DNA of 64,000 bases from Blasia pusilla (taxonomy: Eukaryota). The notes below the pieces were generated by a model, which saw nothing but the letters and a program-made list of their open reading frames with translations, was not told where the DNA came from and did not search any database. The DNA lies in NCBI GenBank assembly GCA_050084515.1, contig CM114271.1, positions 46,624,001-46,688,000 of the forward strand. The letters are read 5' to 3'. A program made the position numbers and the translations under genes. Every line of letters starts with the position of its first letter. The first letter of the stretch is position 1. Positions 13,331 through 48,985 of the stretch are shown piece by piece.

Positions 13331-13540
<210 letters not shown>

Positions 13541-13877
13541 ACATACATTTATCATATGAATCCTAAAAATCTATACATGAACGATTTGACACACCCAAAT
13601 CCTTAGATATTAAATATGCTTTTAGCTCTAAAATCTACAATTCCATTGTTTTAACATAACATTCACTCCCAACATGACTTGGATATATTTAATATGCATG
13701 CACTTCATGCTTCCAAAAAAAATGTCCAAATCAAGATACACTCAAACATAAATTTGTGATCTCTACATTAATTGTAGCCTGCTATTAATGCAAAAGATTT
13801 CATGCTCAAGACACCAACTTAGCCTTGTTATAATATATATCATGGATCCCATTCTCAAGGTATGATATCTAAAGATG

Positions 13878-16800
13878 TGTCGTGTGCATACACATCGCTG
13901 TCACTCAACACACACACAAACACACACGATCCCATATTATTTCATGGCATCCAAACAACGAGACAAGAAGTACCAAAATATCTCCAATAAAATAAGATCC
14001 AATCTCTCTCAACACCATAGCTCTCAAATGTATGCACTCTCATATGTCTCTCTCAATGTGAAACCTAACCCCCTCTCCTAATGAGAGGCTTGGGTTACAC
14101 ACACAAGGCAAGCAAGACCATAGCTCTGCCGCCTCATGCCAAGAGAGAATGAGCTCTCAAGCTCATTCTCTCTTTGTCGAACCTCTTGGCATGAGGCATT
14201 CTCTCTTTGTCTCAAGCTCTTGACCTGATGTAGGAGGTCAAAGGCCACTAACAAAAAATAGAAAGTGGATCATATATTCAAAATGGTACTTACCTAAAAT
14301 AGTGAGTTCTTCAATATGGCTCCAAATGAGCCGAAATGAAGGCCTCAACAGATCATCCTCGACCTATTGAGCCTGTCCTCCACTACTCATGGAGGCGCTC
14401 TACTAGATCTCATCGATATATCCTAAAAGACGTGACAATTGTCGTGCGCGTACACATCACTACATAACATACATCGATGTTACCGAACACACACACAAAC
14501 ACACACGATCCCATACTAACTCATGGCATCCAAACAACGAGACAAGAAGTACCAAAATATCTCCAATCGCCCCCCTAGTTGGTGGACCTCAAATTGTCGT
14601 GGTTGGCGATGGGATACAGATTCAGTAGGCAAGCATCCTTAGTGTCTTTCTCATTGTACTTGCTTTTGTATGGCCAAGAGCCAGATTTACCTACGGCCAT
14701 TCGTCAAGATGTTGGTGAGGTGTTGAACCTTGATGATCCTGATGTATGGATGCAAGCATGTTCTCAGAGGGTTGAGTTATTTCGGAGAGTGATGCCCATC
14801 ACGTTTGAGAACTTGGCGATTGCGCAACATCGGGATACATTGAGGTATGCGACTATTTGGGGAGGTGGTTATCGACCACCTCCCCAATTTGAGGTCCCAA
14901 TCTCCTAGGTGACATCTCTGCAAGCCATACTTGCATAATCCTCTTCACCGTCTGCACAACCGGCTCAGCTAGTCCATTTGCCTTAGGATGATCTCGCGAA
15001 TTAGTGCGGTTGTCGATCAGTGTCTGATCACACAAGGCTTGAAATTGCCCACGGAACTCTATATCTTGGTCTGTCAACACCTCAACTGGTGCACCATAAT
15101 GACTCAGCACTCAATCTAGGAAGGCATACGCTACTCCCTCACTTGCTTTGTCAGGAAATGTAACCAACTCTATCCACTTTGAGAAGTGCTCGACCATCAT
15201 CAACACATAATGACAATGGCGCTCCGTCAAAGGCAAAGGTCCTGCAAAATCCAAATTCCGTCTATAACCTAAACCCATGATCGGAAGTGGATGCAACTGT
15301 GAAGTCGGAGCATCAAACGATGCTCGAACTTGATCACACACCATGCATTTGGCAACAAACTGCTGAACGTCAGTCTACATGCCTCGACACCAATACGAAA
15401 CCTGGAGCAAGCAGTACGTCCGCTTCACTCCAAAATGACCCAACTCTTCGTGGGCATCACGCACCAAATGTGCTTTCTACAAAGTATGAGGCACTACACG
15501 CACTCTACCACACTCGCAACACATGTGTCCCGTCCCACCAAAACTGTCTGGCTCGCTATAGGATCTGATCCTGCTCTCTAGCATCCATTATGCTCGCGAT
15601 GCTGCCAGTACGTAGGTCCTCCAAGACCACTCCATCATCGTGAATATCTCGGCCACCTGTCTTCTCCTCACGGGCCTCTGGATCTGAGGACTCTCCGTCA
15701 GACCTCGCCATAGAAGTCTCAGCAATTTGGCTCTCCATAGCCAACAAGCCCAAATAGGCTGACACATGCCATCTTGGCACCAACTCCTCATCACTCTCAC
15801 TATGCCAACGAGCTCTAGTTGCATCTCGCTGACTCAGGCATGGGTTACGGCTCAAACCATATGCATCTTGGTTGAGCATCACAGGTCTATGCACCACCTG
15901 GAAGTCATACTCTTGCAACAAAAGAGCCCACCTCGCAAGCTTTCCTGTAAGCTTGTCGGACTCCATCAACCACTTAAATGGCTGATGATCAGTAATGATG
16001 GTAAAGGGATTGCCAAATAGATAACATCTGAAATGTGCGAGAGCCCACACTGAAGCCAAGCACTCACCCTCATACGAGATATACTTTGCCTCTGTAGGGT
16101 TGTTTGAGCGATTAGCGTAAGCCACCACGAACTCTGTACCATCATTGTCAAGTTGGGTGAGCACGACTCCGAGCCCCAACATGCTCCAATCGATATGCAA
16201 ATGGAAAGGATGCCCCCTCATCGGTCTCCTCAATATGGGCGGATGTCAAACTGTCCTTGAGCATCTGAAATGCTCTCCTGCTCATCCCCCCAGTGCCACT
16301 CTTGATCCACCTTGGTGAGCAAGGTCGGTGGCTTTGCAATCGACCTAAAACCCTTGACGTATCGTCGATAGAAGTCCGCCAATCCCATGAATGCACAAAC
16401 TCGACTCACATTTATAGGGCATGGAATGCGTGAAATAGCCTCTACCTTCCTCTACTGCACATCAAGGCCCCCTGGGTATATCGTATGACCCAAGTACTCA
16501 ATCTGGTCGTAGAAGAACTTGCACTGGATGTAGCTTCAGCCCATGTAACTGCAATTGTCGGAACACCTCCTCTAGATGTTGCTCATGCTCCTCAACCATG
16601 GGGCTAAAGACTATGATGTCATCAATATAACACCTAGAAAAATCCAGACCTGTCAAGATCCTATCCATGATCCTCTAGAAATCATTCAGGGTGTTCTTTA
16701 ACCCAAATGGTAAGAACCACCATTGGTACAAGCAATCCTTCCCGTGAGGATCGATGCCTCAAAATGCCGTTTGTTGCCTGTCCTCCAATCTAATAGGCAG

Positions 16801-19800
16801 TTGATAGTATCCGGGTCAAAGATCTAATGAACTGAAGATCTTTGCATGCCCAATAACATCAAAGATCTCCTCATGAGTGGGCATGGCATACCTATCGGAT
16901 TTTGTCTACCGATTGATAGGTCAGTAATCTCCACACATCCGCCTATGTGTCTGCTTGCCATGCACGTCCTTCTTGGCGGGCATGATAGTGGCAGATGCAT
17001 ACTCCCCATGCGACATCTCCACTAGTCTTCCTCCAACCAAGTCCTGGCTCCTACTCTGAATCAAAGCCCTCTCCATGTCACTGTACCTGTAGGGTTTTCG
17101 GAAGATCAGCGTGTCACTCGACAACTTAATGCAGATCCTTGGACCCTTCAGCATATCCAAATCCTGCATACTAAATGCAAAACAGCTCCTATAACTCCTA
17201 AGGAACTGGTGTATGCGGCGCCGCTCTCCTCCTGTCAACTTAGGGCCCATATGTGGCTCCCAAATCTCCATCGTGCCTACAGTAGGACTCTCCGGTATGG
17301 GTGTCGGTGGTTGCTATGGTGTAACCCCGTCTCGGACAACAAAACTCGATTGCTCTCCTGCCACCAACTGCAAAATCGGATCTCCATTTGCAATACCCGG
17401 AACCACGCTCGATGTTGTGTGTACCATCTCCTGGTGTACCTGCAAAACATTCCAAGAAGTCCAAGGGTGTCTCTCCCGATCACCCCTAGTGTGTCGATCT
17501 CCTCTAGTCAACCATTGCCTCGACCGTCTTAGTAGGCATGGGGCTTACCAACGCAACTTTTGTGATCTGTCGCTCCTCAAACGACGTTGCTAAGCTACTA
17601 CTAAGCTGAAAATCTATGTCAAGCAGTTGAGGTACATTCCTTTATCCAAGACATGACGTTATGATGCCTCTGGTAGTGATAATACTACCTTCATTCCTAT
17701 GGGGAATCCCATCACTTGCTCTTGCTCATCGGCGTTAGGCTCCACCAACCTCTATGCCTGGTCATCCCAAACCAAGCCAGGTTCGGCCTCCTTGAATGCA
17801 TAGGAAGTGGGAAAACTCACCAATGTGGGAAAGGCTACTCGTGGCATGCCACTCTTGTGAACCATAATCCATAACCATAACGAGGGTCGATCATCATGCC
17901 TCACTGCCTATGATCGACGACCCGGATCCAATATACAATCCACCAACAAATCATAGGGACGCTCCACTCTCGCATAAGCCCTCCGCAACACCTCAGGTGG
18001 TACCAAGTTGGTCCACCAAAGACACGGGCGGTCTGCTCTAGAACCTACACTCGTCGCATCTAACAACATTGCCGGGCCGATCCATGCACGCACCTTATGT
18101 GCACTCGTCACTATGCGGGACCTTGAATCGCCCAAAATTGACACATTCTCCAAAATGCATATTGGAGAAAGAGGGTGATGCTCATGTAAATATCGCAAAA
18201 TCCGCATCATCTCCCAAAACAACCTGGACCGAGTGTCAGCTAACCCGCTACCTCGTCCAACATTCAATTGGCCCTGACATGGCCAACCAAGTCTATGGTC
18301 CCTACCTGCTCCAAGTCATGCGCCCCCAACAATGAAATGTCCCTCCGTAGGGAACTCTGGTAACCCTTAATGGCATACGCAAACAACAAGTTGGGAAAAC
18401 AGAGGCGTAACTGCGCCACATGGTGAAGTGAAGCGCGCCTCGCAATATCATCAATTTCCACATACAGGTACTGTTCCTCGTGCACTCCACCATGCAAAAC
18501 AACACCTAACCCAATACTGATCCCTCCAAAGAGATCCAACACCCAAATATCCTCCTCTAGGATGCACCACACAATCGGGTTGATGTCCAAAGGGGTCATA
18601 GCAGCACTCCTGCCTACCTGGGGTTCCTCTGACCCGTCACACTCTAGTGCAAACGTCTCGCTCCATGTGGTGTGCACATGCTCAGTGGCTAAGCGTCGAA
18701 GCTCCTCAGTCGAGCCCCAAAGTGGCACCTCTCTTCCACGGACTGGTGAGACTATCATGACACTCCTCTCCATATAAATGTCACGAACAAGAGTATCCTC
18801 TGCATGGATATGTCCCTCAATCAAATCAATAGGCCAAGTGATGGCACTTCTGATTGTTGCTAAGGTCGCCATCTCTTATGGTCGTCGCTCGATCACTACA
18901 CCTGTGAATCGAATGGGTAATGAGCTAAGGCGCCCATCACCTGACTGCCATCCTGGTTTGTAGGACGCTGATTCCTCCCAGTAATCCAGGGAAACCCCAT
19001 CGGGTATAACACTTCTCCACCAACCAAGACATTGTAGGACTCTACATCAATCACTATCGCCTTGGCTCATCTCTAGGATATCCCAGGAAAATCCTCACCA
19101 CAAACTCATGTCGGGTGATATACTGTGTGGTACTCACTCCACCCAAGGATGTCTGTATCTGGAATGGACAACGCTCCACATCGGCTCTCGTCAAGCCCAA
19201 TATTCTGAATGACGCTTTCCCCAACATCAGGGGTTGCGCTCTTGAATCCAACAAGACGCACTGTAGACTAAAAGCTCTACCTCCTAGACTCACCAACTAG
19301 AAGACATCTCCCCAATTATCCAGAAAAACAACACCAAGAGAAGCCATGGCACGCTCTACCATGGGTCTAGCGGGCATCTCCGCCATCCTAGCAGCCGCAG
19401 CCTGCCATGAATTTGACGAATACAGCCCAAGCATCAGCTCCAAGGGCAGGTCCATCACCTCCTCTACAATCACCTCTGAACGTGATGCAAGAACTCCAAC
19501 TCCACGCTCACATAGTGTAGCAGCTAGCTCAAAAAACTCGACAGGGGTACCTCCCAACGTCATAACATAGGAAGCAACAAATAAAGGAGCGCAGTACACA
19601 ACGGTGGCCGCCCACAACAACGTGCTCAACACATGCCCCTCCTGAGCATCAGCAATAGGAGTCATTGCACTCGCTTCTCCCATCGCCCTCCGTGCCTGCA
19701 CACCAACAACATCACCAACTCTCCAGGAACTCTTTATCAGGACCCATCCATGGGGTCCTTATTGCCTCGAACAACGTGAAAGATTGAGGAAGCCTGGTCT

Positions 19801-22800
19801 ATTTCCTGTCTTTTCCTCGATGTGGATCTAACTCTACGGCTGCTCCATGCGTCATAACTGCAGCGGCTTGCATCTGGGCAACCACACACATCCAACCAGG
19901 ATCCTCCATATCTTTAGCTGCTCCATATGATGTCGATGCCATGGATCCGGCATTGGGTAACCTCAATGCCATAGCAACAAACTGCTCCTGTAGCTGCTGT
20001 ATCTGAGCAGCCATCCCAGCCTCACGTCCGGCGTCTCCCTCGACGCGTCTAGGTGGTGGGACTCTAGCTCCTCCACGGGCAGCTCCACCACCCTGTCGAG
20101 CAACTCCAGCTCCTCGTCCCCCAATGGGACCACCGGGTGCATGATCTCTAGGCCCATCCGGACCGGCTACTCGCTCTAGTGCCCTCTCTGGCCCTCGGTC
20201 CGAACATAACTCAGCACGTAAACTGAAATACCTGGCGCGTGTATGACCATACCTTTGACAATAGTCACACTGATAACCTCCTGGTGCAGCACCATCTCCT
20301 CCTTCATGTTGAGGCATAGGTCCACGACCCTGACGAGTGCAATCACGTTGATGATGGGCTCCACCACATGACCAACAAGTAATTGTAGGGGGCTACTGCT
20401 GAGCCGCATATGAAGGTGCAAGTCTCTATGGCACGGCCTCTCGGTATCCTCCTTGAGCTCGTGGTGCCACAATCGACCTATCTCGGAGTCCACGTTGCTG
20501 CACTAGTGGTGCAAAGAATCGTGAGTGCTCTCGCCCAGAATCCATGGTGGCTATGCTCTCCTCCGCCATGTTGCGCTCAATATTCTTGGCGGTCCTAAAA
20601 ACATTTCTCAACGTAGGAGAGGTGTTCATAAGAAGCACCCTCTTCCGCACCCATATCCGTAGGGTCCGGTCCAACATTGTGTATCATGACTGGATAGCCT
20701 GAGCCTCTGTCACCCCCTGAGTGACGTTGATCAACCGATGCAAGCGAGTGTAAGCCTCACACAAACTCTCACTTGGGCACCTCTGGAAGTCGTAGATGCT
20801 CCACAACTTCTCCGTCCGTACCCCCTGGTAGCTCGCCCTCAACTCAGTGAAGAACTCAACCACGTGGTTGAACAAGGGATGAACCCGACTAGACGGTGCA
20901 ACTGCTCCAGTGCGAGTGACCCCTCCTAAAACATCACTAGTGGAAGAGGAAGTAGCCTCTCCTGACTCCTCCTCCTTATCTAGGAACGGCACCGTCCATG
21001 ACAGATAGTGTGGATCATAGTAGAGTCGCCATGCCTCAATCTCATCGACATATCTCTGGGAGAACTCATGATAATCGTCCGTGGGCGCCCCCTCTAAATG
21101 TTGGAACATGCGGTTCCAGGCTGTAAACGAGTTCAACTCTCTAGAGTTCCGGCCCGCTGTGAGTCACACAAAATCCTAAACTCCGCAATGAAGTCGTGTA
21201 GCTCTATAGTGCCTACAACACCCAAAAACCTACGCACTCCTCTACCGCGTTCGTCCATCTTGTATGTCCAACTGGTAGGACCACTCAATATGTACGGTGG
21301 ATCACTAACACACTCCTCTACATGCTCCCCCTCATTTGAAGATAACACAGAAGGAGATCGAGGTGGTCTTTCACGTGGAGACCCTCGAAACCACTCTGGG
21401 TAAACCCTCCAGAGCTACTCTCAGGTCCACTACCTTGCCTCTTAAAATCTTGAAAGGACGCCATGATGGCCCTTGTGCCCCTCTCACACGATCACTCTCA
21501 ATCTTGCAAGTAATCCCTCAGTCACTAAAACTAAAAATGCGGCACTCGATCTACACTCTCTCATTGAGACCTGTGCTGTGTGGCAACAAGCGACGCGGTC
21601 CGGCAAATCAACTGATATATCATCTCATCGACAAACCATCCTCAACTCGGGACATCCCATAAAATTCTATGTCCCCTAAACCCATACATCATTGATGCTC
21701 TCAGCATCAGCACAAAACAATTTCCCAAATAACTTCCCAATATCCGGAAATCCCTCACACATGGAGGGTAAGAGACCAGAATGGGTAACCTGACAATAAT
21801 GTCAATGTCGCTCCTCAGAAACTCCAAATCTCGAACCCAACTTGGTTGTGAAGACAACTCCTTCAATCAGCAAGTCGTACTCCTCTCGTACTAACGCTGC
21901 TCAAACCTCCTCGATGTGCGGTGCACGTTCACCGGTTCGATGCGGCACGGAACGGCTACAAATGACATGGCACTCGAGAATGGGATGCGGCACTCAACGG
22001 CATACCCTCTCTTCTCCTTAGTGAAGGAGTACCTCTACGATCGAGACGGTGCGGTGCGGCCACAAGCGGCGTGACGTGGCAATCGGAGAGCGTTGTGGCT
22101 ACGGGCGTCACGACATGGTACTTCATCGTCGTTGAGCGGCTACCAATCACAACATAGCAACATGAAATAAAAACTCAAACACCATAACTCGAGGTCACCT
22201 GCCATTGGTGGTTGATGACAAAATTGCAATCACAGTGGTGGCCAAACCAAAGTATGTGGTGGCGGCGCAAGTCAGAGAATCAGCGATCATCGTGGAATAC
22301 CCTCCACTCCGTAATGGCGGCAATGGAAACCAAGAGTGGACGACGGCCGAACGCGGCTCTTAGCAGTGCTATGAGGCGGCGGCGGCCAAAGGTGGACCAT
22401 TGATAATGACGGAGGATTGTTGATGGTGATGGTGATCGTCGACGATGACGGTGACTATGACGGCAACGGTCGTCGCCGGCGCGGCGGTTGGTTTAGAGTT
22501 TGAAAAATTTCACCCTTAAAATTGCTTAGCAATGGAAGTTTTGTAAGATTGACCATTACTTTTTGTTTGCAACTTCAAATTGCACACCGTTTGCTGCACA
22601 GCTTCACGATCTGCGATGGCGTGAAAAAACATTTTGAATCAAACATTGCTGTAAAAAGTGACAGGGACTGTTGTAAAACCCAACGTGTCTTTCTCCTACA
22701 CAAAATTCGATAGTGCTTCCATGCTGATTTCTCCCAATAAAAATGTAAAACCAATGAGAACATAAATCATCAAGCTACATGGTGCTCTCGAAAGCACTGG

Positions 22801-23552
22801 CATGGAGTTATCCGCCCCCATACTCAATTCCTATCAAAAATTGGGCAGCCGCTTCCGCGTGCCACTCTCCCATACAAAAAATCAGCAAAGCAAAACAACA
22901 AACTCACACGGCTCTTACTCCATTGAGCACTCTCATGAGCCATGAAGCGGGGAACACGGTCCTCCAACCTACACCAAACATCGAACAACCAGCAAGCTCC
23001 CTCATCAAGCTCTCTCACTCACTCATTCTCTCTTCGTAAAATAAGATCCAATCTCTCTCAACACCATAGCTCTCAAATGTGTGCACTCTCACACGTCTCT
23101 TTCAATGTCAAACCAAACCCACTCTCCTAATGAGAGGCTTGGGTTACACAAACAAGGCAAGCAAGACCATAGCTCCGCCGCCTCATGCCAAGAAGTTCGA
23201 CAAAGAGAGAATGAGCTCTCAAGCTCTCTCTCCTTGAGGTATACCCCTCCCCACTCCCAAGCTCTCTCCATGGTAACCTATGCTCCCAAGTCACCTCCTT
23301 GGCTCTTGACCTGATGTAGGAGGTCAAATGACACTTACCAAAAATATAACGTTGATCATATATTCAAAATGGTACTTACCTAAAATAGTAAGTTCTTCAA
23401 TATGGCTCCAAATGAGCCGAAATGAAGGGAAAACCTGCTCTCTCAGGTTTTCTGGGGCCTCAGTAGGTCATCCTCAATCTATTGAGCCTGTCCTTCACTA
23501 CTCATGAATGCACTCTACTAGATCTCACCGATTCATCCTAAAAGACGTGACA
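13878..23552 (-). mobile_element. Near-complete decayed Ty3/Gypsy-type retroelement (gag-PR-DNMT-RT-RH-INT) with split direct repeats and 4-bp TSD GATG
   Basis: GATG at 13874-13877 and 23553-23556 flanks TGTC...GACA termini. A1 23552-23037; coding region; CTAGGGGGGCGA 14578-14568; B1 14567-14440; AT; A2 14437-13988; B2 13988-13878. Motifs: gag knuckle CDYCQRYGHT, PR LLDSRAQ, RT RRMCGDY and YIDDIIVFS, RH LHIDWSMLGLG..YEGECLA..TDHQP..KLARWAL, INT VEHFSKW and LTDQ. Confidence 0.93.
17590..18548 (-). pseudogene. DNMT3-like C5 cytosine methyltransferase domain inside retroelement pol (copy 1)
   Basis: Motif I VLDLFGGISIG, II YVEID, III RDI, IV GWPCQG (across a small deletion near 18290), VI ILENV, VIII SRADRPCLWWTN, IX EPNADEQEQVMGFP. 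Stops and frameshifts present. Confidence 0.88.
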
Positions 23553-23710
23553 GATGAGCTCCATAATAAGCTTTGCCAAGGGTATACCTTCTTGCTTGAA
23601 AACACCATGATGCTCACATACATGCATAGATTATGCACATGCAATAGATCCCGAAGTACGCAATCTGCATGATCATCTTGATAAAATACCACATAAGATC
23701 CTCTCTATAT

Positions 23711-24456
23711 TGTCATGGTAGATTAGGCGTAGAGCGAGATAGTATCGAGGCCTTAGAGGGATCTTATACTTCCCTATTTTAAGAGGTCATATATTACCTG
23801 CTCTTATGAGGTGACCTACGAGTGTAGGTCACCCTTTCTTTTATGAGGAGTGGCAACCTTAGAGAGGTTGACCCTCCTAGCCATGTATATATGACTTCAC
23901 TTGGACCTATAAGGTCAAGGGTTACTTGGTCGTTAGTCCCATTAAGAGACCACATATGTAGTTGTTAGGGAGTTAGTACTTATATATTACAAGTCATTAG
24001 TTACGTGCTAGGGGGGAGGTGATCTATGTGTGTAGGTCACGCATGGAGGTGCCCAAGGGCGGAATATCTCAAAGGACGCTCATTTAGAGCTCATCTTCCT
24101 TACGATTACACACATGTTGGGATCCGTCAGACCCTGCAGCTTGCATGTATTGAGTATGGATTCTCTCTTGAAGAGTGGGCTAGGATTGATAGAAGATCAC
24201 ACATATTTTGGAGTCCTTTGTATACTTTCTTCTACTATTACAACAGTGTGTATGGATATGGATGTTTAGATGAAGAATATTTGGTCAATTGCAAATTTCA
24301 TTAGAGTTTACAGTCCATATTCAACTTTATTGGAGTCGTGTGGGGCTGTCCAGTCGTTCATGTGTAGATATATTAGGATTTATAGGTAGATGGATTTTAG
24401 ATATGTGTGTGCATGAGAGCCAATTTATGTTGGCAACAATGTCTATTTGCACGACA
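23711..24456 (+). mobile_element. Solo terminal repeat (solo-LTR-like unit) with 4-bp TSD ATAT
   Basis: Starts TGTCATG, ends GCACGACA (same termini style as the split-repeat elements), ATAT on both sides. Homologous along its length to 52962-53706. Confidence 0.85.
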
Positions 24457-27400
24457 ATATGAACCAAGTGTATCTACAGGAAGGAAATGCCTCACAAAAG
24501 CTATAGGATACCCTTATTATTGGCATATCTTACTTCGCCCCATTGGCTCAATGGCATCTTTGATCATATTCACTCTGTTCTTCCTTGAATTCGAAGAGAG
24601 CTTCATTGTTTCTTATTACAATATCATGATTCTCTTCTTCAAGAAGATCTGCTTCTTGATTTGAAGATAGGTAGTAGGTTAGAGATCTTCAATTGTCTTA
24701 TTTATAGAATTGCACATATTAGAAGAAACACCACCTAATATTTTCTATCAAACTTATCCATGCATGGATACACATCTATACTATTATGGGAGAGTACCCT
24801 CTTGCCCGTGCAAACACCTCTCCTTGAGCCACGTGGCGATTTTGGCTAATAAAAATTTGATTTTGGATAATCGTAGTTGTCTGCCAATCTAAGGGTTTTT
24901 TTGAGTGGGACATTTACAACCATCATAGTACTTCAAAACGGTTTTTTTGAACTTTTAAAATTTGTCATGGTGACAGTTATGATCGTAGTAAGGAGATCCA
25001 TCAATGGCAAGATCCTTTTTTTAAGCTTTTAAATTATGTCGTGCTAACCGTTATGATCGTGATAAGGTAGATCTGTTGATGACGAGGTGCTTTCCCTCCC
25101 AGAGTTGTGCAACGGTTTTTCAGGTTATCGTACTCACATCCGACTGTATTTATACCGTGCATTCAATGTAGACACTCATGACGTAGATACAATACGCACA
25201 TACTCACCCAGGTAACCATTTCCACCAACATTGCAAATTGATGTTCCCAGATGATTACAAGTTTTTGAGATGCTAGGCATATGATTGATGTACTCTAACA
25301 ACCTATCTGGTTTGTGAGCTACAACTTTCAAAGGAGTTTTCGAGTCTCCCAAAACTCACAGACTCAACGTTCCTCCACCCAAGAAGCTCGCAACTCGAGT
25401 CGCTAGGAGATCAGGCTGATTGTTCCCCTTCATATCTCCAACACTCCCATGTTGACGGTTCCTCTACATTCCCCTTCAGTTTCAATAGCACTCCCGATTC
25501 GACTTAGGTCCTCAGCATCTCCCAATTTGGAATAACTCCAGGTCCACCTCCAACTCCAGCTACGCTCTAGTTTAGTCGCCTTCTATTTGTTCGACCTATG
25601 CCAGCTCCACATTCTCTCTACAACCATGGCTTCCAACCCTTCCGATAACCAATCGAGCTACATACAAAAACATCAAAATGGCAACAAGGATAACTGCAAA
25701 GAAATCAACACATAGAAAGGGAAAGGGAAAGGCTCCATCCAAAACCACTCCATCAAAGAAATATTATGGTGTAAAGCCTGCTGATCTCAAACCTTGGGAG
25801 AGTGGAAAATAGTTTCCCATCTCTCAAGAAGACTGTGTTTGCCTGAGCATGTGGAAGAAGTCACACTTCAGAATTAGCCCACCTTTGGGGACGAGACTCA
25901 GCCCGGAGCATCCTCCAGACTTTGAAGGTGCAGTAAAGGACTCTCTCCTAGTGGGAGGAGGGCCTCCATTATAAAATAAAGGATATCTTCTTAACTCGGT
26001 TGAGGGGTTGGAAAAATAATTTCAAATCGAAGTCCAAGAAAGTCCCCAATGTTATGTAAGGGGCCCTGCAATTAAAGACCATGCACATTCCACGCAACAT
26101 CTGCAAAAAAAATTCTCAAAACACCTCATCCCAACGTTCAAGAACATTGCTCACCTTCTTAGAAGAGGTCGCCAATCCACATGAACGTGCCCATTAGCTC
26201 TACCCCACAAACCAATGGGACTAAAATAGTTCAGAAAGGGAAAAAAACATCAAGGTGTTATTATAAACATTGAGATTAGGATCTGACCAAACTAGGAGCC
26301 TAGGAGCTTCCCCATCTATAGATCGGAAAGAGTTAGAAAGATTGACTTGCATGTAACGCTTGGTACATGGAAATCAAAGCTTGGTTGGAAATGAAAACTT
26401 AGCTGAACATTACTTTGTCTGAATGTGTGGTTACTACATCAGCAACCCCCTCTCTCTCTCTCTATGTATAGAATTACTCTTCTCGAGTACTCCTGATATG
26501 AGCAACCATGGTCACCGCATTTCACCTACTGGCTCCTCTCGAGTACTCTAGCGACAAGCAATAAGGTTAGAATGTAGAGCACGGATGCGAAAACATGCAC
26601 AAGCTCGAGAGCATAAGGACACTAAGCCTTAAGTCCAAGCAGGAAAGGCGAGGAAACCTGCACGAAGTCTCAATGCTTTGTTGAGTACAAGCCCATGCCA
26701 CCCCCAAGCAATCGCAGTAACCTATGCCACGTGCAAGTAATTTCAGCAACCTTGACGAACAAACAGGAGCAGATTCCAAGGCGAGTACGTAGCAAGATGA
26801 GTCTTGAGCAAAGCCATAGCCAAGGAAGGACCAAGGGCGAGTGGGTGGGCGAGCGAGAAAAATCCTATAGCTAAAAAAGGACCGAGGGTGGGATGTTGAG
26901 AAAAATCACAGAGGATTGTCACATCTGGGTAGCCGATAGGCCGAGATTTATCGTGGATAGGGCGTAGAAGCCAGGGGACTATCTTGAGTGTAACTTTGTC
27001 CCACTGTGTCGGATGAGGTTGAGGATAGGTCCATTGTGTTAGGAACGTTGTTTCTGACAACTATCATGTTGCGGTCTTTCAAAACCGGGTGACTTGTTGA
27101 CCAGGTCATCCGCCCCTGGTAACCTGTGCGCGCAAGTTACCAGGGGGAGGGCTATTTTTAGGGGAAGAGCCTTTTGGCTCTTCCCAACCCTATATAAGAG
27201 AGGAAGATGGATTTCCTAAGCCATCTTTCTCATGTTGGGCCGTTGGAGCATCTCTCTTGTATGTGTGTGAGATAGGACTAGGGTGCTAGCATCCGGATTC
27301 CTTGATAGCACAGGGTGGACGAGGCTCGATATGCCGATCTAGATTGAGGAGTGGAGTTTTAGGCCGGGTGTGTCGTTCTTACTACTCTTTATTTTTACAT

Positions 27401-28543
27401 GGGAAAGTTGTCAAGGAGCTGGTGGGAATTTGTTGTTTGCAGGTAGGCAAGCGAGTTGCCTTGGTCGAGAGCTTCCGGAGACGCGTGTGTTGCGTGTGTT
27501 GGTCATTTTACTGTTCAGAAGGTCATGGGCGGAAGCGCTATCCGGTTTTCTCAGATTTTTGGCTGGTGCAGATTAACAGGGGACATCAGCTGAGTGTAGC
27601 AGGACGTATGGCGTCAGTTGTACACAAGTGAGGGTCGGAAAGAGGAGGAGGCGGTTGGAAACTAGGGCACGGACGGGCAGATGGCGACGCTGTGCCCCCC
27701 ACCCCCTTTTTTTGGACGTGGTTGGCGCCTACCACGCAACATGGTAACCGAGTCGGGCGTACGTGGTAGCAATCAAGGAGAGATGGTTGAGTTCAGACGG
27801 CGTTGAGTCAAGTTACATGCCGCGTGTGGGGATAAGCGGAGAAGTTTGCACGACATGATTTTCTCGGACGTGACGAGGATTTGCGAGAGTTGACGACGGA
27901 GTGTCAGTAAGTATGATGCCGACGGGTTGTCCGCATTTGTTGACAGGAGGATTGACGTATTGGTCGAGGAGAGTATTTTGTTGCGGACGTTGTCGTGTCA
28001 CATGGAGGAGTGCGTGTTGACGGTGCCGTAGGTTGGAGGGCGTGATCAGGTTACCCATTCGAGTCCCTTTTCCCGCACTTGTCGTGTGTGATTGAGAGTG
28101 TTGGGTATCGGGTAGTAGCAGGTGCGAGGTGGATGTAGTGATGGTGAGAGGTGCGGTAAGAGGAGAGGAAGAGAGGAAGATAGGAGAGAGGAAACTACCT
28201 TCAACCGAAATAGATACTTTTTTTTGAAGAGAGTTTCCGTCGGGTTGAAGAGAGGAAAATTTTTGTTTGAATTTTTTTGCACTTTTTTGTTCATATATTA
28301 AGCAGTCCCACAAATTTTTTTTCCTCTTCCATATTTTGGCAACCCCTCTGAGTCCGACGAGTTGCAAATTGCACAAAATTTAGAAAACTGAAAAATCAGT
28401 GGAATCATAAGTGTGGAACCAATCACTTTTTCCATCCAAGGTCTGGAAAAAATCTATCATTTGCCCAGGGCTGAATAGAGTTCAAGCTCAAAGTGAAGGT
28501 TGAGAAAAAAAAAAAGTACAATCTAAAACCTCATTTTGCATCC

Positions 28544-31500
28544 TCAAAGTGGTTTGTTTAAAATACTTCGAACTTCTTTGAGGGACAAAATTGGTTGGTG
28601 GATTCCTACTCCTACCTCCAACTCTCTTAAAACTACCAACAACACATAGTACATGTGCTTACAAGGGAAATACCTTTTGCCACTTGTCTCTCTTTGGACA
28701 AAGTCATCACATGAACATGTGGGAAAGCAACAGATGTGCACCACATACACCCCTGTGACACTTGAATTTACAGTGTTGTTCCTGACCCAATACATCCTTC
28801 CTATTCCATTGCCACTCAAGACATCTTTCGTGGCGATGATCTCCATTTTTGCCTCCCCAGTTGATGCAATTTGCTTTGCTCTCTCCACCGTTGGCCTGCA
28901 CATTCTGTTTCTATTCACTCCATTTCTAGACTCAAACAGAAATAATGGATTGAGATCATCCTCCTTCTCCGGGTACATGTTGACATCAATCTTGGGTTGA
29001 ATACAAAATGCGAAGGTCTCTGTAATGCGAACATGCTCCGAACTTCCCCCGTCTACGAGTTCCGGCACTTGTAAGATTGTCCACTTCGTCTTGAGTGCAG
29101 TTCATGCCTGCGGCGATGGGCCAAATCGTGGGGGTATTCCCGGGGAGCTCCAATGGCAGCCGGATAAGACTTCCGGAAAGCGCAAGATTCATTTGGGCAG
29201 AAGAAGTACTTCAATTGATGCCCGGTCCTCGTGAAACGATCAAAGGTTTTGAGTCCCCAAAACCCAGGCAATGGTCGTCCAGTCCTTGTACAGTTCTTAT
29301 TTAGGAAAGTGCCGCATGCTCTCCTAATGCCATCGATCCGCGCCTGCCAGGTGGGTCCACGCCCTGGGTTGCTCCGAGATATATGCCACCGTTTAGGTTG
29401 CAATCCACCTCCATTACCAGAATCCCATATTGTTGAACCACCCCAGTGACAAGATGTTGCGAACTTCCAGCAACGGAGGGCTTTTGACATAAAACATTCA
29501 CTGATTTTGGAGAAGTAACTCCATCACGGATTTGGGACGGGTCCGGGGTCCCCGAATACCTGGGCGGTGTAATTTCCTCATCCAAATCAATCACCGGATT
29601 CGTTCCTCGATCTTCGCCTCTTCACTTGCTCAAGTCAAGATACTTATCTGGTCTCCACGAGTCTCGTTCGGACTGCTCTACCACCATCTGTATGGGACAT
29701 CTTGAAACCCGCCCACGAATATCCCCACCTATGTGTACGTCTTGCTCGAGTGGAGTTCCAGCTACGCACCGGTTGAAGGCTTTGACATACAATTTTTCAT
29801 CACCAGATCTCACAGCCGCCCTGACATAGAGCTCGTAGATCAACGGCCCCTTTCCTTTTGTTATGCCTTTTGTGAGGAAGATATGGGATGCTGCAGACTA
29901 TAGTATTGCTCTTGCCTGGTCTTGTTGGCATGCCTCCACAAGTGAAATTCGTTGGCATGCTTGTGACGACCTCCAAGAGGAATGAACACTTTCTGCTCCA
30001 CTTGTGTTGGGGCAGAGGGCATTTTCATGAACGTTCAATCCCTGCAACGACGGCAATGTTAGAAGGGAACGAAAATAACTCTGGAGTCAAAGAAATAAGC
30101 GACCTGTTGGAACCAGATGGGTTGTAGGCCCGAGATATCCCATGAACGACTCTGCGACCCGTCGGGTCCCGACGTGTTGTAACCTTAAACCCACCTACTG
30201 CAACCCGTCGGAACCGGACGGGTTCCAAGGCCGAGGCATCCCATGAATGACTCTGTGACCCGTCGGGTCCCGACGGGTTGCACACTCGGGTTGCACCAAA
30301 CATCTGGATGCAACCCGTCGGTTTCCGTCAGGTTGCACCCTCGGGCAACCCGTTGGTTTCCGTCGGGTTACACACTCGGGCAACCCGTTGCATCCGACAG
30401 CTTGCTTGGTTTCTTGGGTTTGAAATCCATATAGTTCCCATGCTTCTCACCCTGAGCTACAACTTTACAAACAATTCTCAGCGTGAGCTTGACAAGACAA
30501 AATAGTGAACTCACCTGCCGCATGAAGTTTCCCCATTGTCTCATACGTAGAGTCTACCAACTCAACCAAGAGCACAACTCTTTGTACTTCCCCTCAATCG
30601 CATGCTTCCTCCACCACCCATGAAGTTCTTCCTGGCATTCCATGGCCTGCTTCAAGGTTTTGATGTCCTTGCAGCGTTGGAGTAGAGTGACATGCTCTGT
30701 CCTCTTATTCTCCTTGATGCAAGATTTGGTGTACCGGGTCACAGACTGTTGCCAATGGAAAGCATCCGACCTTTCCCTCTCCGGTTGAACCTCTCCACCC
30801 CAGAACACTTCCCGGATAGCAATCCACCCAGGTTGTGCATTGTCCGCCATGAACCCATAAATTTCCGGAGGTGGCCTTTTGTTTTCCTTCACCACCTCCA
30901 ATAAGAGTAACCAGCACATCTTCAAATTGCCAACGTCTTCTGCCTTTACTTCACAGACAAATATAATTTTGAGTCCCTTCTCCACATGGTCATAAACGTG
31001 AGCACCCATCGTCAACCATCCGTTCAACACTCAATAGCAAATATCAAACCTTACTCAACTCACGTAAAGATCTTCCCCTTCCCTCATTCGATCTATAAGA
31101 TCGAGGCCACTCGACGGACCTGTGGTTGACATTTTGAAGACATAGGCCCTGGATCCCTCGCCTCCTTGGCCCATGAACCGCCATCTCGAATGAACGGAAA
31201 TCTGGAGTTGGCCTTGATTCGGCGATGGCATCCATTTCGCCGTCTTTCCATCCGTAACTCGTATTTGACGCAAAGCAAATTCGGAAGCATTCAGGATCAG
31301 CGAGAAATGCGAGATTCTCCTGAGTTGTTTCTCCTCAACCGTAATCTCGCTTGTCCAGGGATTCCAAGCAATTTTTCACAAATTTGTGATGCCGTTGTGA
31401 GCTTGATCACTCCGGGCTTTGAACCCGGAGAGTTTGTGTAGACCTCGGCTACTTTCTTCGCCACATCCTCCTTGATGTGTCTTTGAATTGCATCGGTCAC

Positions 31501-32341
31501 AGGATGAGTGTGGGAGCCAACATGGAGTGCCAGCCTTGTATACTTTGACGTGGAGCCCAAGTCGTGGACAATGAAAAATATGTATGCAGGACACGCTCCA
31601 ACGCATAAGGGCGATGCCTGACAATGAGGATATCGATGGCCTCCAGGCGGTATGGTGGCACCGACCGCGTATGGAGTTTCTGCATTCTTGGGAGGGAATT
31701 GTGACGTATTGACTCGCCTGTTGCGCTCTAGATACGGGCATGCTGGACTTCTACACTCCAAGGCTCCCACGCATTGGCGGCGGGAGACAATCCAAGGACC
31801 ATCTGGAATTGAAGCACTGGTCCGTTGAAGCCTGCACCATCGATGATAATCGATTTTCGTCCCATACCCTTCAGCGCCCTCCATCCTTCTTTTGAGCAGG
31901 AGCAGCAAGTGGAGGCAACTCAAAAATGCAATTACCATCATACGTGGGCGGCAGCTCGTCGACAAGAATGCGCTTGAACATTTTCAAGGCCAGAGACGAA
32001 AGCAAACTATTGCCGGATACTCGCAAGAGGAACGAGTAGGCGGACAGAGGGCCCGACTGGTGTCCGACAGATCCACTGAGGTTGATAACATCCGGAATCT
32101 CTTCAGGAAGAACAACATTGTTACAAGCGTCGCGGTTGGAGTCGGCCGATCTGCAGAGCTTGGAGTTGCAAACGAGAGCTCGGAGCACTAGGAAATTCTA
32201 GACCGTCTACTTGGGAAACAGACGAATTCAAGGGCAGGCCGTAAACTCTGTATTGACCATTTGGTAGAGGTAGGAGATTCCATACTTTACGGTCTGAGGT
32301 CACTGGCTGGACCGTCTCACCTATTATGTCTTCCGTACCAT
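28544..32341 (-). pseudogene. MULE transposase: GCM/WRKY-like zinc finger, DDE core, SWIM finger; one intron; stops and frameshifts
   Basis: CVGALEC..C..C..C..HVGSHTHP (GCM-like); VRFDIC (D1); FMADNAQ..AIREVF..DAFHWQQSV (D2 + CxxH-like). Intron 30514-30042 joins NFMRQ|GLN..CPNTSGAESVHSSW (E). C-terminal CSCDDF..PCKHMYYV is a SWIM finger. Confidence 0.85.
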
Positions 32342-35300
32342 CCACCCTAACATCTTTGGATACAAAGATGGTTCCAATTTGGAGAAGAAATCAAGCATGT
32401 AAAAATTTTCATCCACTACTATGAAAGACTCACGAGCTTGGGGTCGAATGATTTCTGATTGAGGAAGGGCCTCGGATGATCGCCACAAGTGAGCTTAACA
32501 TAATTATCCATTCCAAGAAGATTCCAACGAGAGGAGACGAGAATGAGAATGAGAATGAGAATTTTTAATTTATAGTGAATAGGAAAAGATACACGACATG
32601 ATTTTTTACTGACAAGATGAATTCGGTGGATGACATTGTCTGACACAATGGATCCAATTCTGTAACACATTCAATTCTGTTGCAATATGTTACCGGATTT
32701 GGGAAGCAAAGGGTTGCGCATCACACTTCTATTCCGTCGGAGTCCTGGTAACTGAAAAATTACCCGAAGCTAACCGAAGCCTGCAACCCGTCGGCATCGG
32801 ACGGGTTGCACACTTCTGCTAAACATTGTCGAGGCGAGCAACCCGTCGCTCTCCGACGAGTTGCTCGGATACCGCTCCTTCTTGCCCGAAGATGCCGGAG
32901 GCGTGCAAACCGTCTGTTCCCGACGAGTTCCGCGGGTGCCTCACCTTTTTGCCCAAAGACGGCGAGGCGTGCAACCCGTCGCCCTCCAACGGGTTGCGCA
33001 AGGGCCTCGCCTTGTGGTGCAGCCAGCCGGACTCCGACGACTTGCACGGGAAGCCCTCGTTCTTAACCCTTGATGAGGGAAGCGTGCAACCCAACGGTCT
33101 CCGACGGATTGCCCAAGATACGTCCCGTTCCCGTCCCAAACACGGCGGAGGCGCGCAACATGTCGGTCTCCGACGGGTTGCGCGGGTACCTCGCGTTCTT
33201 TTCCGAAGACGACGGAGGCGCTCAACCCGTCGGTCTCCGACGGGTTGAGCATGCACGTGGCGACGTACCCAGGATGGCGGAGGCGCGCAACATGTCGGTC
33301 TCCGACGGGTTGCGCGGGTACCTCGCGTTCTTTTCCAAAGACGACGGAGGCGCTCAACCCGTCGGTCTCCGACGGGTTGCTCGCGACGCGGGTAACGCGT
33401 ACCCACGATGGCGGAGCCGCGCAACTGTCGGACTCGACGGGTTGCCATTTTTCACGTCCGGACTTCCGTAACATCCGGCACGTCGCCGTCGAAAAGACGA
33501 TGGGACCCAACGGTTAGCCCAACGGCTAGAAAAGTATAAATAAGGCAGAAATCGCTCATTTCCGGTTTCTCATTTTGCGATCTTCATTCCTCACTCTCCC
33601 GCGTAGCAGCTGATCAAATACGTAGGGGCATTTCACACGGCGACACATCGCGAGTCGATAGGAGGGAACAAGAGCGAGACTGTTCGACCGAACGACAGCG
33701 AGACGCTTCGACTGAGCGATCGCGGGACGATTCGAGCTACCCATCAAGGCGATTCGAGCTCCCCATCTCGACATCAGCAAGGCGACTGATCAAGGGATTC
33801 GTCGTGGACAGTGGAGGCATTTCCGGAAAAAATGACGAGGAAAAAGTCACAAGCCAACAAGTCTGGGAGCTTCATTCCGAAGTCCATTAGGACTCCTGCG
33901 TCAGCTTCTCCTGGGTTCGGCGAATGAAATTAGGCAGCAGGAAATCGAGGAGCGGGAAAGGGAAGCGGAGATGCACAACCAAGTGCTTCTTGCGAGACGT
34001 TTTCAAGAGGTGCTAGATAAACAGAACGCAGAGGCTGAGACGTCGCAGGCCTTGAAGAAAAGGATCGCCAACGAAAAGAGAGAAAAGAAGCGTCTCGACG
34101 CGTCGGTGAGGAGGGCAGAATTGGCTAAAGCGAGGAGGGAAAAAGCGATAGCCATTGAAGATAGCCCAACCCGTCCAACCGCAAGTGTTGAGATGCGGGA
34201 AATGTCCCCCACGAAGTCCGGGGACACAATCAACATAGTGGAAACGCCAGAAGTTGAAATCGATGACGACGAGGTCATGAGGACCGCCAGCGTGGAGATG
34301 GTGGACATGGCCGAAGAAGCCAAAGAGCGGTCATTCTTGACTCCAAGCCCGGCGGAGGACATCTACCTCTATCGGATCGACGAGTTCCCAGTTGATTTTC
34401 CAACTTCTGTCTCAGACAAGTTAGCTGGTCAAAAAACCGACCCCATTTTTGAGCGGGTAAGAGAGGATCTGGGTTTTTTGAATTATGTGAATTGCAATTT
34501 ATTGGGAATTCAGTGTAGCTTATTCATCTTGTCCCGGTTCTGACAGGTGGTAAAGCAGATGGCACTCATGGAGGGCCACAACGCCCCGAGGATTCCACTC
34601 TGCCAATTGCGGACAATGGAATACGTCCGCGAAATTCAGTCGGACGAGGACATCGCGAAGCTTAAACAATCGGCGGCGACAACATCCTACGTCGATAGCT
34701 TTCCTCCCTTCTATGTTCAGCCTTACGACGAGCATGGAACCCAAGCTCTGGTTACAGAGGAGGACTTGGAAAAGCTCGACACATTCTGGAGGATGCGAGA
34801 CCAGGATTTCGAAGGCAAGTTGAGGGCACGGAATTCATTTGGATGAGGAATCTACATTTCTTCATCCGGGATGGAAATCACAGAGTTCATGGCGTGGACC
34901 AAGTTTGCGGAGGAGCGGCCCAACTCATTGGAGGCACATTTTGCGTGAAGGCGGTGGTCCTTCACCCATTCCCTCATCACATGGCGACGGTGGAGATGGC
35001 AATGCATGCCATGAACACGTGAGTATCTTTAACATTTACGCAACTCGCCGGAGTCCGACGAGTTGCTTGATTGATGAATGGGTTAGGTTTGTTTTTGCGA
35101 AAGCAACTCGTCGGACTCACGGGTTGCTCGACCGCACGCTTTTTTGGATGTTTTTTAAGAATGCAACTTGTCGGACTCCGACGAGTTGTTTGATTGACCA
35201 CAGATTTAATTAGTTTTTGGCCCAAAGCAAACCGTCAGAGTCCGACGGGTTGCTCGACTCGCCGCCTTGTCAGGATGTTTTGAAGAATGCAACTCGTTGG

Positions 35301-42800: not shown

Positions 42801-43784
42801 CATTGTGTGAGCGTGGAGAGATGTATGCTTCTTGTTTAGGGGTAGTTGACGAGGTGGTGGACTTGCCTTGAGAATCGATGCTCAGAACGTTCCCCACAAA
42901 GTCATGGCATGCGGCGGCGGCGAAGTTGGTAGATATGCCAGGTTGACCGGCCACAGAGCGAGCAGTGGTGACACTTGGAGTAGTGTTATTGGATAACCAA
43001 GCTGGATTATTTTGCTTGGTTAGTCCCACGGGGACGGTATACCACCCGCAACGCATCCTACTTGATTTGGGAGCACAACCCTTGATGTTAGGGAAGGCGT
43101 CATCTTTAGGGTTGGGGTTACGGAAGGCCGACATTGAGCCTTGTCCCTTCCAGATACTGATCTCGATTGGGGGCGTGTCACCCACGTAGTATATGACTCG
43201 ACAGGAGATAGTTGTCAGAGTCCAGCCAGAGCATGCGACGGATAATGTTGTGGTGCGTACATGTGCGATTACCACACCAACTGAGTCGTACGATGTGTTG
43301 GTGGGGAGTATAGTGTTATATCCCCTAGGATTCATCCTTGTGGGAGGAGACCGTTGCTTATCGGCCAGGGTGGCAGTCAAGTGACGAGCGGAGGAGTCAG
43401 TTACCTATGCAGTTTGCGGGACAAGGTGGTCGATCACGAGGCGAGTGTGTGACCACGTTGGCAGCTTTCACAGGTAGTGTTAGCTGGCCAAAAGAGTTGT
43501 TGGAGGGGAACGCACATGCGGAGGATGTCCTAGTAGCGGATAGTCCCACGGAGAGAAAGGCCATGGTGGGTGTCTCTTCCCATGTTGGCGAGACCTCTTC
43601 ACCATTGTGGGGTACGACTCCGGAGCTACAGAGGAGTGCCGACGATCTCGTGAGGCAGGCGTGGAGTCATGCCTTTATCCCATAATAGCGCGAGTTAGGT
43701 GGTGATCAGGCTTCTGGAGTGAAGACGTTGACCCCACGGGATACCACACCTGTTGTGTGGTAGTGTCCAGAGGAGGGTGTTAGG

Positions 43785-48400: not shown

Positions 48401-48985
48401 TCCCCATCAATCCCAGAAAATCTGAAAAAAATCTTGAAAAAAACACAAAACGTCGCCTCCGCCCACGGCCTTCCAAACAGAAAAATGACACACATCTTTC
48501 TCATGTTAAAATAAAGAGTAGTAAAAACGGCACTCCCGGCCTAAAACTCCACTCCTCAATCTACATCGGCATATCGAGCCTCGTCCACCCTGTGCTATCA
48601 AGGAATCCGGACACTAGCACCCTAGTCCTAGCTCACACACATACAAGGGAGGTGCTCCAACGGCCCAACATGAGAAAGATGGCTTAGGAAAGCCATCTTC
48701 CTCTCTTATATAGGGTTGAGAAGAGCCAAAAGGCTCTTCCCCTAAAAATAACCCTTCCCTTGGTAACCTGCGCGCACATGTTACCAGGGGCGGGTGACCT
48801 GGTCAACAAGTCACCCGGCTGTAAAAGACCTCAACATGAAAGTTGTCAGAAACGACGTTCCTGACACAATGGACCTATCCTCAACCTCATCCGACACCGT
48901 GGGACAAAGTTACACTCAAGATAGCTTGCTGGCTCCTACGCCTTATCCACGATGATCTCGACCTATCGGCTACTTAGATGTGACA
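45479..48985 (-). mobile_element. Inverted, truncated third copy of the same retroelement (5' repeat, gag, protease)
   Basis: 48985-48496 is the reverse complement of 26917-~27406. 48100-45482 is the reverse complement of ~40762-43362 (ORF 45630-46028 has LLDSGAQ; CDHCHRYGHTRDRC knuckle). Confidence 0.9.

Follow-up and report, generated by a model that had tools for sequence, protein, structure and literature searches.

Two dead Ty3/gypsy-type retrotransposon copies from Blasia pusilla with a predicted DNMT3-type methyltransferase domain in Pol

Layout of elements A and B

We examined a 64,000-nucleotide stretch of the Blasia pusilla genome (GenBank assembly GCA_050084515.1, contig CM114271.1, positions 46,624,001 to 46,688,000; hereafter the window, numbered from its first letter), which contains two retrotransposon copies, elements A and B, that each carry a cytosine methyltransferase (DNMT) domain between protease (PR) and reverse transcriptase (RT). 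Domain order was mapped by tblastn of two Marchantia polyproteins, P0006 and P0010, onto the window. Element A is a Ty3/gypsy-type retrotransposon on the minus strand (13878-23552), with the order gag-protease-DNMT-RT. Along its coding strand, gag with its CCHC knuckles (19739-21282; tblastn 21243->19739) is followed by an aspartic protease (19069-19626; tblastn 19608->19069), whose active site has decayed to DSRA and whose relatives match Pfam Asp_protease_2. A conserved stretch detected by tblastn (18558-19004; 49% amino acid identity to B over 102 codons) lies between the protease and DNMT motif I. The catalytic domain of the DNMT, a DNMT3-type C5 cytosine methyltransferase by Pfam, tblastn and its motifs I to X, spans 17569-18557; within it, the catalytic core, comprising motifs I to X, occupies 17590-18548, and the conserved N-terminal extension reaches 19004. 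RT and RNase H come next (15514-17262; tblastn of P0010 residues 696-1190, E 3e-161), with a Pfam RT_RNaseH match of 5e-33 on 15556-16245. The integrase lies after RNase H, so that the Pol order of Ty3/gypsy elements, PR-RT-RNase H-integrase, is present with the DNMT inserted between PR and RT. The best matches of P0010 in the PDB are Ty3 RT (4e-48 and 1.4e-47), and the RT-RNase H part of A is 49% identical to P0010.

The integrase of element A is rearranged. Its core persists as broken open reading frames (ORFs) on the minus strand (14853-15374) with 69% nucleotide identity to a further copy of the same family, copy D, in which this domain matches Pfam rve at 4e-12. Its C-terminal part, an ORF on the plus strand (14594-14908), is inverted relative to the rest of the element and matches copy D (989-1273) in D's coding sense. 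Copy D (29-1657, plus strand), the 5' part of which is cut off by the window start, encodes RNase H, integrase and a C-terminal PHD finger (Pfam, 8e-11), with 69-75% nucleotide identity to A. Copy D is collinear here, and 'opposite strands' joints at 14584|14898 appear in both the DNA and the RNA reads of other copies, so that the inverted orientation of the integrase segment looks private to element A; on the same grounds the inverted piece was ruled out as a family feature.

The ends of element A (TGTCAC... and ...ACGACA) are of the TG..CA type and are flanked by a 4-bp duplication, GATG, at 13874-13877 and 23553-23556, as in Ty3/gypsy elements. The repeats themselves are not two plain long terminal repeats (LTRs); they are split direct repeats, arranged on the coding strand as A1 (23552->23037), genes, B1 (14567->14440), A2 (14437->13988) and B2 (13988->13878). 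A1, the 5' copy of the main terminal repeat (23037-23552), lacks the B segment. A2, the 3' copy (13988-14437), starts on the coding strand with TGTCACGTC and stands in direct orientation to A1; the two are 88-94% identical in ungapped blocks and differ by three indels (Kimura two-parameter distance 0.08 over 381 ungapped nucleotides). B2, the last segment of the element (13878-13988, coding-strand end ...ACGACA), is 93% identical to 14471-14567 in its internal copy B1 (14440-14567), which is found two bases upstream of A2; all four segments are read on the minus strand. Three related loci (L038, L059 and L066) have the same A1-ORFs-B1-A2-B2 layout, and the possibility that 14440-14567 is a truncated tandem LTR or a 2-LTR-circle junction was dropped for this reason.

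Element B is encoded on the plus strand. Its 5' terminal repeat (26917-27411), which starts with TGTCACATCT, is 92% identical to 48986-48492 in inverted orientation, and its leader extends to 28045 (27956-28045 matches 48185-48096 of copy C, described below). A nested insertion of 12.7 kb, foreign to the DNMT element, lies between leader and gag (28046-40761), and position 40762 of B matches C 48101. Gag and protease (41048-43333; tblastn 41087-43333) are followed by the DNMT (43341-44867; tblastn and Pfam), in which an N-terminal stretch precedes the catalytic domain (43764-44717), and by the first part of RT (44988-45480; tblastn 45039-45446, its first 136 residues), which is cut at about 45480. 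Copy C occupies the minus strand from there on (45480-48986). It consists of a terminal repeat (48986->48492), gag and protease, belongs to B's subfamily (89% identical to B over 2630 nucleotides; tblastn), and stops exactly at the protease/DNMT boundary. The junction at about 45480 is thus tail to tail, with B cut within RT and the inverted C cut at the protease/DNMT boundary; it could reflect the insertion of two truncated copies, or else an inverted duplication whose centre is asymmetric. An earlier, sequence-only reading of the window had taken the region from 26917 onwards as a single element, which proves to be a composite of B, the nested insertion and the inverted copy C (48986->45480).

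The same reading had described A and B as unlike in their terminal repeats and clearly divergent in protein sequence, with a common PR-DNMT-RT order and common methyltransferase motifs, and here it was borne out. Comparison of the A repeats (13878-14437 and 23037-23552) with the B repeat (26917-27411) found nothing shared at E<=0.001 except the terminal TGTCACRTCT, the first ten bases. Identity between the elements is 64% over 623 nucleotides and 53% over 348 codons at the protein level in the DNMT, 75.6% (nucleotide) and 66% (amino acid) in RT, and 51% and 48% (amino acid) in PR and gag, respectively. The order PR-DNMT-RT was recovered in both by tblastn of P0006 and P0010, and both still have, in the usual sequence, recognisable motifs I (DLFGG), IV (GWPCQG), VI (ENV), VIII (GSRAHR.RLWWTN) and X (LGQAMDLN). 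A second subfamily with the DNMT at the same place is exactly what an old, integral domain predicts, and the result is in this sense confirmatory.

The methyltransferase domain and its constraint

The DNMT domains were detected by tblastn with E-values of 1e-70 to 1e-80. Against a curated cut-off of 22 bits, Pfam PF00145 scores 25.1 bits (E 1.4e-5) on the A ORF at 17908-18315 and 32.5 bits (E 8.2e-8) on the B ORF at 43764-44324. When P0010 was compared with the PDB by phmmer, the sole DNMT matches were DNMT3A, DNMT3B and DNMT3C (best E 2e-6). A profile of 39 relatives matched DNMT3A at 3e-23, DNMT3B and DNMT3C at about 1e-20, DRM at 5e-14 to 2e-9 and M.HhaI at 1e-8; DNMT2 ranked below DNMT3A, and DNMT1 and CMT gave no match at E<=0.01 in this search. 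An AlphaFold model of one relative, P0019 (pLDDT 83, pTM 0.80), was compared by Foldseek with the PDB, where the matches listed to rank 49 were all DNMT3A, DNMT3B or DNMT3C, with a target-normalised TM score of about 0.8 for chains of the methyltransferase domain. Judged by profile and predicted fold, the element DNMT is of DNMT3 type, unrearranged, and translated within Pol between protease and RT. It resembles cellular DNMT3A and DNMT3B in catalytic fold and motif order, but is only about 20-22% identical to them, lacks an adjoining PWWP or ADD domain and is part of a polyprotein.

Both copies in the window are dead. The DNMT of A has six breaks (stops or frameshifts), among them one frameshift at about 18267-18288 and in-frame stops, and in its motif VIII the His and one Arg have been lost (H->D, R->C). 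The DNMT of B has eight in-frame stops, and its motif I reads DLFGW (G->W). With these changes A and B themselves fall short of a functional DNMT3, whereas intact relatives keep the catalytic residues (the Cys of PCQ, the Glu of ENV and the motif VIII Arg): all 39 have the PCQ Cys-Gln and the ENV Glu, and the Asn of ENV and both motif VIII Arg residues are conserved in at least 90%.

To what extent the domain had been constrained before its decay can be read from the substitutions. Differences between A and B at codon positions 1, 2 and 3 number 114, 83 and 211 over 348 DNMT codons in a protein-guided alignment (chi-square p 4e-24), and 55 of 190, 39 of 190 and 106 of 188 in a blastn alignment made without protein information. 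Neutral evolution of the DNMT between the two subfamilies is contradicted by this concentration at third positions. Nonsynonymous divergence (dN) between A and B is 0.35 in the DNMT (0.33 in its catalytic part), 0.24 in RT, 0.42 in PR and 0.49 in gag; a DNMT value between RT and PR/gag is as expected for a co-diverging Pol domain. Synonymous divergence (dS) is 2.5 for the catalytic part and undefined for the whole DNMT by the Nei-Gojobori method (NG86), and 7.6-17.6 by maximum likelihood. The pairwise A/B ratio, with dS saturated or undefined, was rejected as a measure and is usable only as a direction, dN being well below dS. The comparison of DNMT and RT dN/dS suggested by the sequence-only reading therefore stands in its direction, dN far below dS, but not in its magnitude, because saturation of dS makes the A/B ratio unquantifiable.

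A scan of Joint Genome Institute (JGI) metagenome contigs gave 80 related loci, drawn from only a few samples and possibly from a small number of host genomes; codons of these loci and of A and B were projected onto Marchantia references. For pairs with dS below 0.1, the median dN/dS is 0.83 for the DNMT (69 pairs), 0.48 for RT, 1.14 for PR and 0.76 for RNase H. At dS 0.1-0.25 these medians are 0.65 (1995 pairs, 99% of them below 1), 0.46, 0.78 and 0.48, at dS 0.25-0.5 they are 0.64 (623 pairs), 0.36, 0.66 and 0.33, and at dS 1.2-2.5 they reach 0.21 (145 pairs), 0.18, 0.33 and 0.10. A fall of dN/dS with distance is expected when copies of a selected gene have died. Among close pairs, in which most copies are dead, the DNMT medians are 0.6-0.8, and 0.2 is reached only in the deepest pairs, against the Ka/Ks below 0.2 reported in passages of PMC5890265. 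The DNMT is somewhat less constrained than RT and RNase H, and more so than the protease.

The trees tell a similar history for the DNMT and its neighbours. A groups with B in a DNMT tree of 19 rows, and with B and C in a gag-PR tree of 20 rows to which copy C was added, in each case with a Shimodaira-Hasegawa-like approximate likelihood ratio test (SH-aLRT) support of 98; in both trees the window copies are separated from a clade of Marchantia rows and from one Sphagnum row, and three unnamed proteins form the most distant group. In a larger DNMT tree of 56 rows, A and B fall in a clade of eight (SH-aLRT 100) with Calypogeia P0002, Marchantia P0006, P0010 and P0014, and the unnamed P0004 and P0017. 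In that tree A and B are not resolved as sisters, and B has a nearer relative in the Calypogeia copy (60%) than in A; the A/B split is therefore about as deep as the splits among liverwort copies. The 56-row DNMT tree and a 23-row RT tree show the same deep split, in which one branch parts two architectures described below (20 versus 36 rows, SH-aLRT 99, for the DNMT; 5 versus 18 rows, SH-aLRT 100, for RT). DNMT dN is also correlated with RT dN (r 0.68) and with PR dN (r 0.85), with 0 of 999 permutations as high in either comparison. The congruence of RT and DNMT that the sequence-only reading had proposed to check was thus found in both tree shape and dN distance.

An index of sequencing runs listed no RNA run for the DNMT stretch of B. 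Reads of three RNA-seq runs and one DNA run, whose species label is that of the best-matching DNA runs, were mapped on 13700-24000 at 90% likeness. All three RNA-seq runs give strand-biased reads over the interior of A (for example, 34 versus 0.8 at 15076-15419), and the bias flips in the inverted integrase segment, which serves as an internal control; on the usual reading of stranded libraries, the reads are sense to the element. Most are 90-95% alike to A (1235 of 1408, 1444 of 1692 and 1249 of 1414), while only 5, 3 and 6 reads are at least 99% alike, and they therefore come from related copies. Related copies of the family are transcribed in sense, a statement that applies to the family and not to copy A itself. 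In the DNA reads, the main repeat of A (22988-23331) is covered at about 1150 per mate class, compared with 240-400 for the genes and 15-17 for the right flank, which suggests many solo repeats and a many-copy family in this species.

Hosts, relatives and role of the family

In a profile search of 1.84 billion representatives, 12027 proteins matched at E<=0.001, 482 of them at E<=1e-30. Among 200 proteins with a DNMT match, RT precedes the DNMT in 77 and the DNMT precedes RT in 10, the order being undeterminable in 113. The DNMT-before-RT type has Marchantia, Calypogeia, Sphagnum, Closterium and Klebsormidium nitens as named hosts, with the Pfam order CCHC-PR-DNMT in K. nitens P0180, CCHC-PR-DNMT-RT in Closterium P0303 and the full order in the unnamed P0302. 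The other type, in which the DNMT follows RNase H, has the chlorophytes Haematococcus, Monoraphidium and Chromochloris as named hosts. Pfam annotation of 24 long representatives gave RT-RNase H-DNMT-integrase in 22, most with a terminal PHD finger, CCHC-DNMT-RT-RNase H-integrase in one and the DNMT alone in one. Polyproteins of the form RT-RNase H-DNMT-integrase-PHD (P0045, P0049-P0126 and P0204-P0300) make up a large public-metagenome set. One of these, P0226, has the chlorophyte-type architecture but is labelled as a 'Minisyncoccia bacterium' metagenome-assembled genome, and probably comes from a eukaryotic contig placed in a bacterial bin.

The chlorophyte elements resemble the A/B family in having a related DNMT3-type domain (36-39% identical to the Marchantia DNMT), a related RT and the same integrase C-terminus with a PHD finger; they differ in that the DNMT lies after RNase H and before the integrase instead of between protease and RT. 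The integrase-PHD part of copy D (932-1657) can be aligned over its whole length with the chlorophyte polyproteins, with 37-43% identity. Among the 80 related loci, an integrase-PHD part is found about 3.7 kb downstream of the DNMT in 32 (for example, L009, L015 and L022), with the PHD finger itself covered in 24; it is absent from two unnamed proteins of the DNMT-before-RT type, P0302 and P0308. Chromoviruses carry a chromodomain at the end of their integrase, and the integrase of this family ends in a PHD finger at the corresponding place.

The sequence-only reading had presented the arrangement as a discovery, whereas elements of this kind were published in 2018. Because the order gag-PR-DNMT-RT occurs in Marchantia, Calypogeia, Sphagnum, Closterium and K. 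nitens, the lineage is the published streptophyte 'Gypsy-DNMT3' kind of de Mendoza et al. (PMC5890265). Passages of that paper describe K. nitens Gypsy elements in which Pol includes a DNMT3, with Ka/Ks below 0.2 between copies and repeats arranged in a DIRS-like way (Fig. 4c legend and reply to reviewers), and call the acquisition of the DNMT specific to the K. nitens lineage; liverworts, Sphagnum, Closterium, Haematococcus, Monoraphidium and Chromochloris do not figure in its survey. Like the A/B family, KnitGypsy-Dnmt3 is described in them as having a Gypsy Pol and an unrearranged DNMT3-type domain in one ORF with RT and RNase H, and, like element A, DIRS-like repeats in which two A repeats flank the ORFs and two B repeats flank the 3' A. 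Purifying selection on the DNMT is probably common to both, though in the A/B family the dN/dS medians come near the published figure only in the deepest pairs. Likeness in domain order is drawn from the K. nitens protein P0180 and not from the paper's figure. P0180 falls on the DNMT-before-RT side of the DNMT split (SH-aLRT 99), on a long branch whose exact place is unsure, and it could not be matched by accession to the K. nitens copies of PMC5890265, since no identifiers appear in the parts of the supplements that were available. The A/B family differs in a much wider host range that includes bryophytes, and a PHD finger on the integrase goes unmentioned in the passages of PMC5890265. A second published element, SymbioDIRS-Dnmt3 of the dinoflagellate Symbiodinium, also has a DNMT3-type domain inside a retrotransposon Pol, but on a DIRS backbone that its authors, in the passages seen, describe as unrelated to Gypsy (PMC5890265).

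A 2026 preprint, in the part available, mentions 'streptophytes (Gypsy-DNMT3)'. No description from a liverwort or other bryophyte was found in the literature searched, which included passages of PMC5784723, PMC12344493, PMC6453930, PMC11982613 and bioRxiv 10.64898/2026.05.21.726589; likewise none was found for the PHD finger or the chlorophyte architecture, although coverage was incomplete and absence is unproven. With this limit, what is new here are the bryophyte hosts, the PHD finger on the integrase and a sister chlorophyte lineage with a related DNMT after RNase H.

Taken together, A and B are very probably dead copies from two divergent sublineages of one Ty3/gypsy family with an old, Pol-borne DNMT3 that was under purifying selection in the past. 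The full layout of the family is gag(CCHC)-protease-DNMT-RT-RNase H-integrase-PHD, within split direct repeats of the form A1-ORFs-B1-A2-B2 with TG..CA ends. The ancestor shared by the Klebsormidium, Closterium, liverwort and Sphagnum copies and those of this genome very probably had the DNMT between PR and RT already, and purifying selection would have kept it there while the elements were active. The proposal of the sequence-only reading that the DNMT is old and selected rather than a recent capture is upheld by the third-position bias, dN/dS below 1, the congruent trees and the wide range of hosts.

Several observations weigh against this reading. Neither A (six breaks) nor B (eight) is able to make an enzyme, and the 80 related loci contain only 29 ORFs of at least 300 amino acids, nearly all being decayed, with no intact full-length copy seen among them. 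The unquantifiable A/B ratio counts on the same side, as does a dN/dS that is higher for the DNMT than for RT in each class below saturation (0.65 versus 0.46) and reaches 0.83 in the closest pairs; moreover, the pairs are non-independent and the codon alignments protein-guided. The trees come from quick searches with SH-aLRT as their only support, and are unrooted because the DNMT trees have no cellular plant DNMT3 outgroup, the top 150 representatives being all element-like. Between the DNMT and RNase H, dN distances are only weakly correlated (Pearson 0.17, reached by 69 of 999 permutations; Spearman 0.59). Read depth over the DNMT stretch is the lowest of the element interior (DNA 49-113 versus 240-400; RNA 0.6-6), which we take to reflect faster divergence or, less probably, relatives without a DNMT; no DNMT-skipping joint is found among the 15 joints listed of 95. 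Lastly, the K. nitens DNMT gave no methylation in yeast, a result that its authors, in the passages available, call inconclusive (PMC5890265).

Could each subfamily instead have captured a host DNMT3 separately and recently, the shared position being convergence or an artefact of nested insertion? Retrotransposons have acquired DNMTs more than once, according to passages of PMC5890265, and the sister lineage bears the domain at another position. However, the A and B DNMTs lie within one clade of element-borne DNMTs (SH-aLRT 100), the trees of the DNMT, gag-PR and RT are in agreement, the Marchantia polyproteins are collinear with the window copies across the junctions and the conserved stretch beside the DNMT, and K. 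nitens and Closterium have the same order, which together leave separate captures a very small likelihood. Horizontal transfer among green plants, by which the DNMT would be old in the element and the element young in each host, deserves more weight but is still rather unlikely as the source of the wide host range. It would fit with window copies that do not fall cleanly with liverworts or Sphagnum, and with the integrase-PHD part of D, which is 73-86% identical to most of the metagenome copies bearing that part while DNMT identity to tree relatives peaks at 54% for A and 60% for B. Against it, streptophyte hosts all have one architecture and chlorophyte hosts the other, the named bryophyte copies form one clade, and near-identical copies in distant hosts were not seen among the copies compared.

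A different doubt concerns activity: the domain may be conserved but no longer methylate DNA, acting as a structural spacer, as an RT cofactor or on RNA like DNMT2. Constraint weaker than on RT would agree with this, as would the inactivity of KnitGypsy-Dnmt3 in yeast, and RNA methylation was raised by the authors for a LINE-borne DNMT, both according to passages of PMC5890265. We consider it improbable given that the catalytic Cys-Gln, ENV and motif VIII Arg are invariant or nearly so in the 39 relatives, and that fold and profile match DNMT3 far better than DNMT2.

Returning to an old DNMT3 carried in Pol, the results above show what the domain is, where it lies, its type of fold, its age and its past selection, as well as sense transcription at the level of the family. 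In active copies it may be a working de novo DNA methyltransferase that methylates the element's own new cDNA or insertion site; we give this a little less than an even chance. The remaining likelihood is divided between a non-catalytic or RNA-directed role and a self-limiting one. As a working methyltransferase the DNMT would travel with RT and integrase and methylate the new cDNA or the insertion site, so that new copies would bear a host-like methylation state, while the PHD finger of the integrase might read histone tails or help to choose chromatin at the target. For elements that form cDNA, de Mendoza et al., in the passages available (PMC5890265), favour such methylation of the cDNA or insertion site, and they also report that the DNMT of SymbioDIRS-Dnmt3 performs de novo CG methylation in yeast.

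A transposon with its own de novo methyltransferase runs against expectation, because cytosine methylation is the main plant route for silencing transposons. The sole described case in the plant lineage was thought to be confined to Klebsormidium; the same type and layout are now found in liverworts, Sphagnum, Closterium and this genome. As the element was under selection, transcripts are present and the hosts include Marchantia, the role of a transposon-borne DNMT becomes testable with genetics and methylome tools. As to the deeper origin, a single ancient capture of a DNMT3 by a PHD-integrase gypsy lineage before the chlorophyte/streptophyte split, with later movement of the DNMT within Pol (to the PR-RT interval in streptophytes and the RNase H-integrase interval in chlorophytes), is possible but we regard it as doubtful. 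If it were true, green plants would for most of their history have carried retroelements that pair a histone reader (PHD) with a writer of DNA methylation, and an example that is tractable and still transcribed would be available in the genomes of bryophytes, among them the model Marchantia. A green-plant-wide PHD-integrase gypsy lineage with a DNMT3 at two positions is the part worth follow-up.

Other features of the window

The nested insertion in element B (28046-40761) contains broken minus-strand ORFs at 28547-31983, one of which has a Cys/His pattern that we take to be SWIM-like in look. Pfam gave no match on 13 ORFs from the insertion and five from the flanks. A 27-nucleotide palindromic unit, GCAACCCGTCGGAGTCCGACGGGTTGC, occurs in four clusters within the insertion (about 30099-30371, 32754-33380, 35026-35688 and 37759-38096), which also contains an unclassified direct repeat of 450 nucleotides with 74% identity (38862-39305 and 39544-39994). 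A second unclassified direct repeat, of about 750 nucleotides and 79% identity, has one copy adjoining element A (23710-24457) and the other at 52961-53707. Two long (CA)n microsatellites, 97-99% alike, are located at 13334-13552 and 58144-58358.

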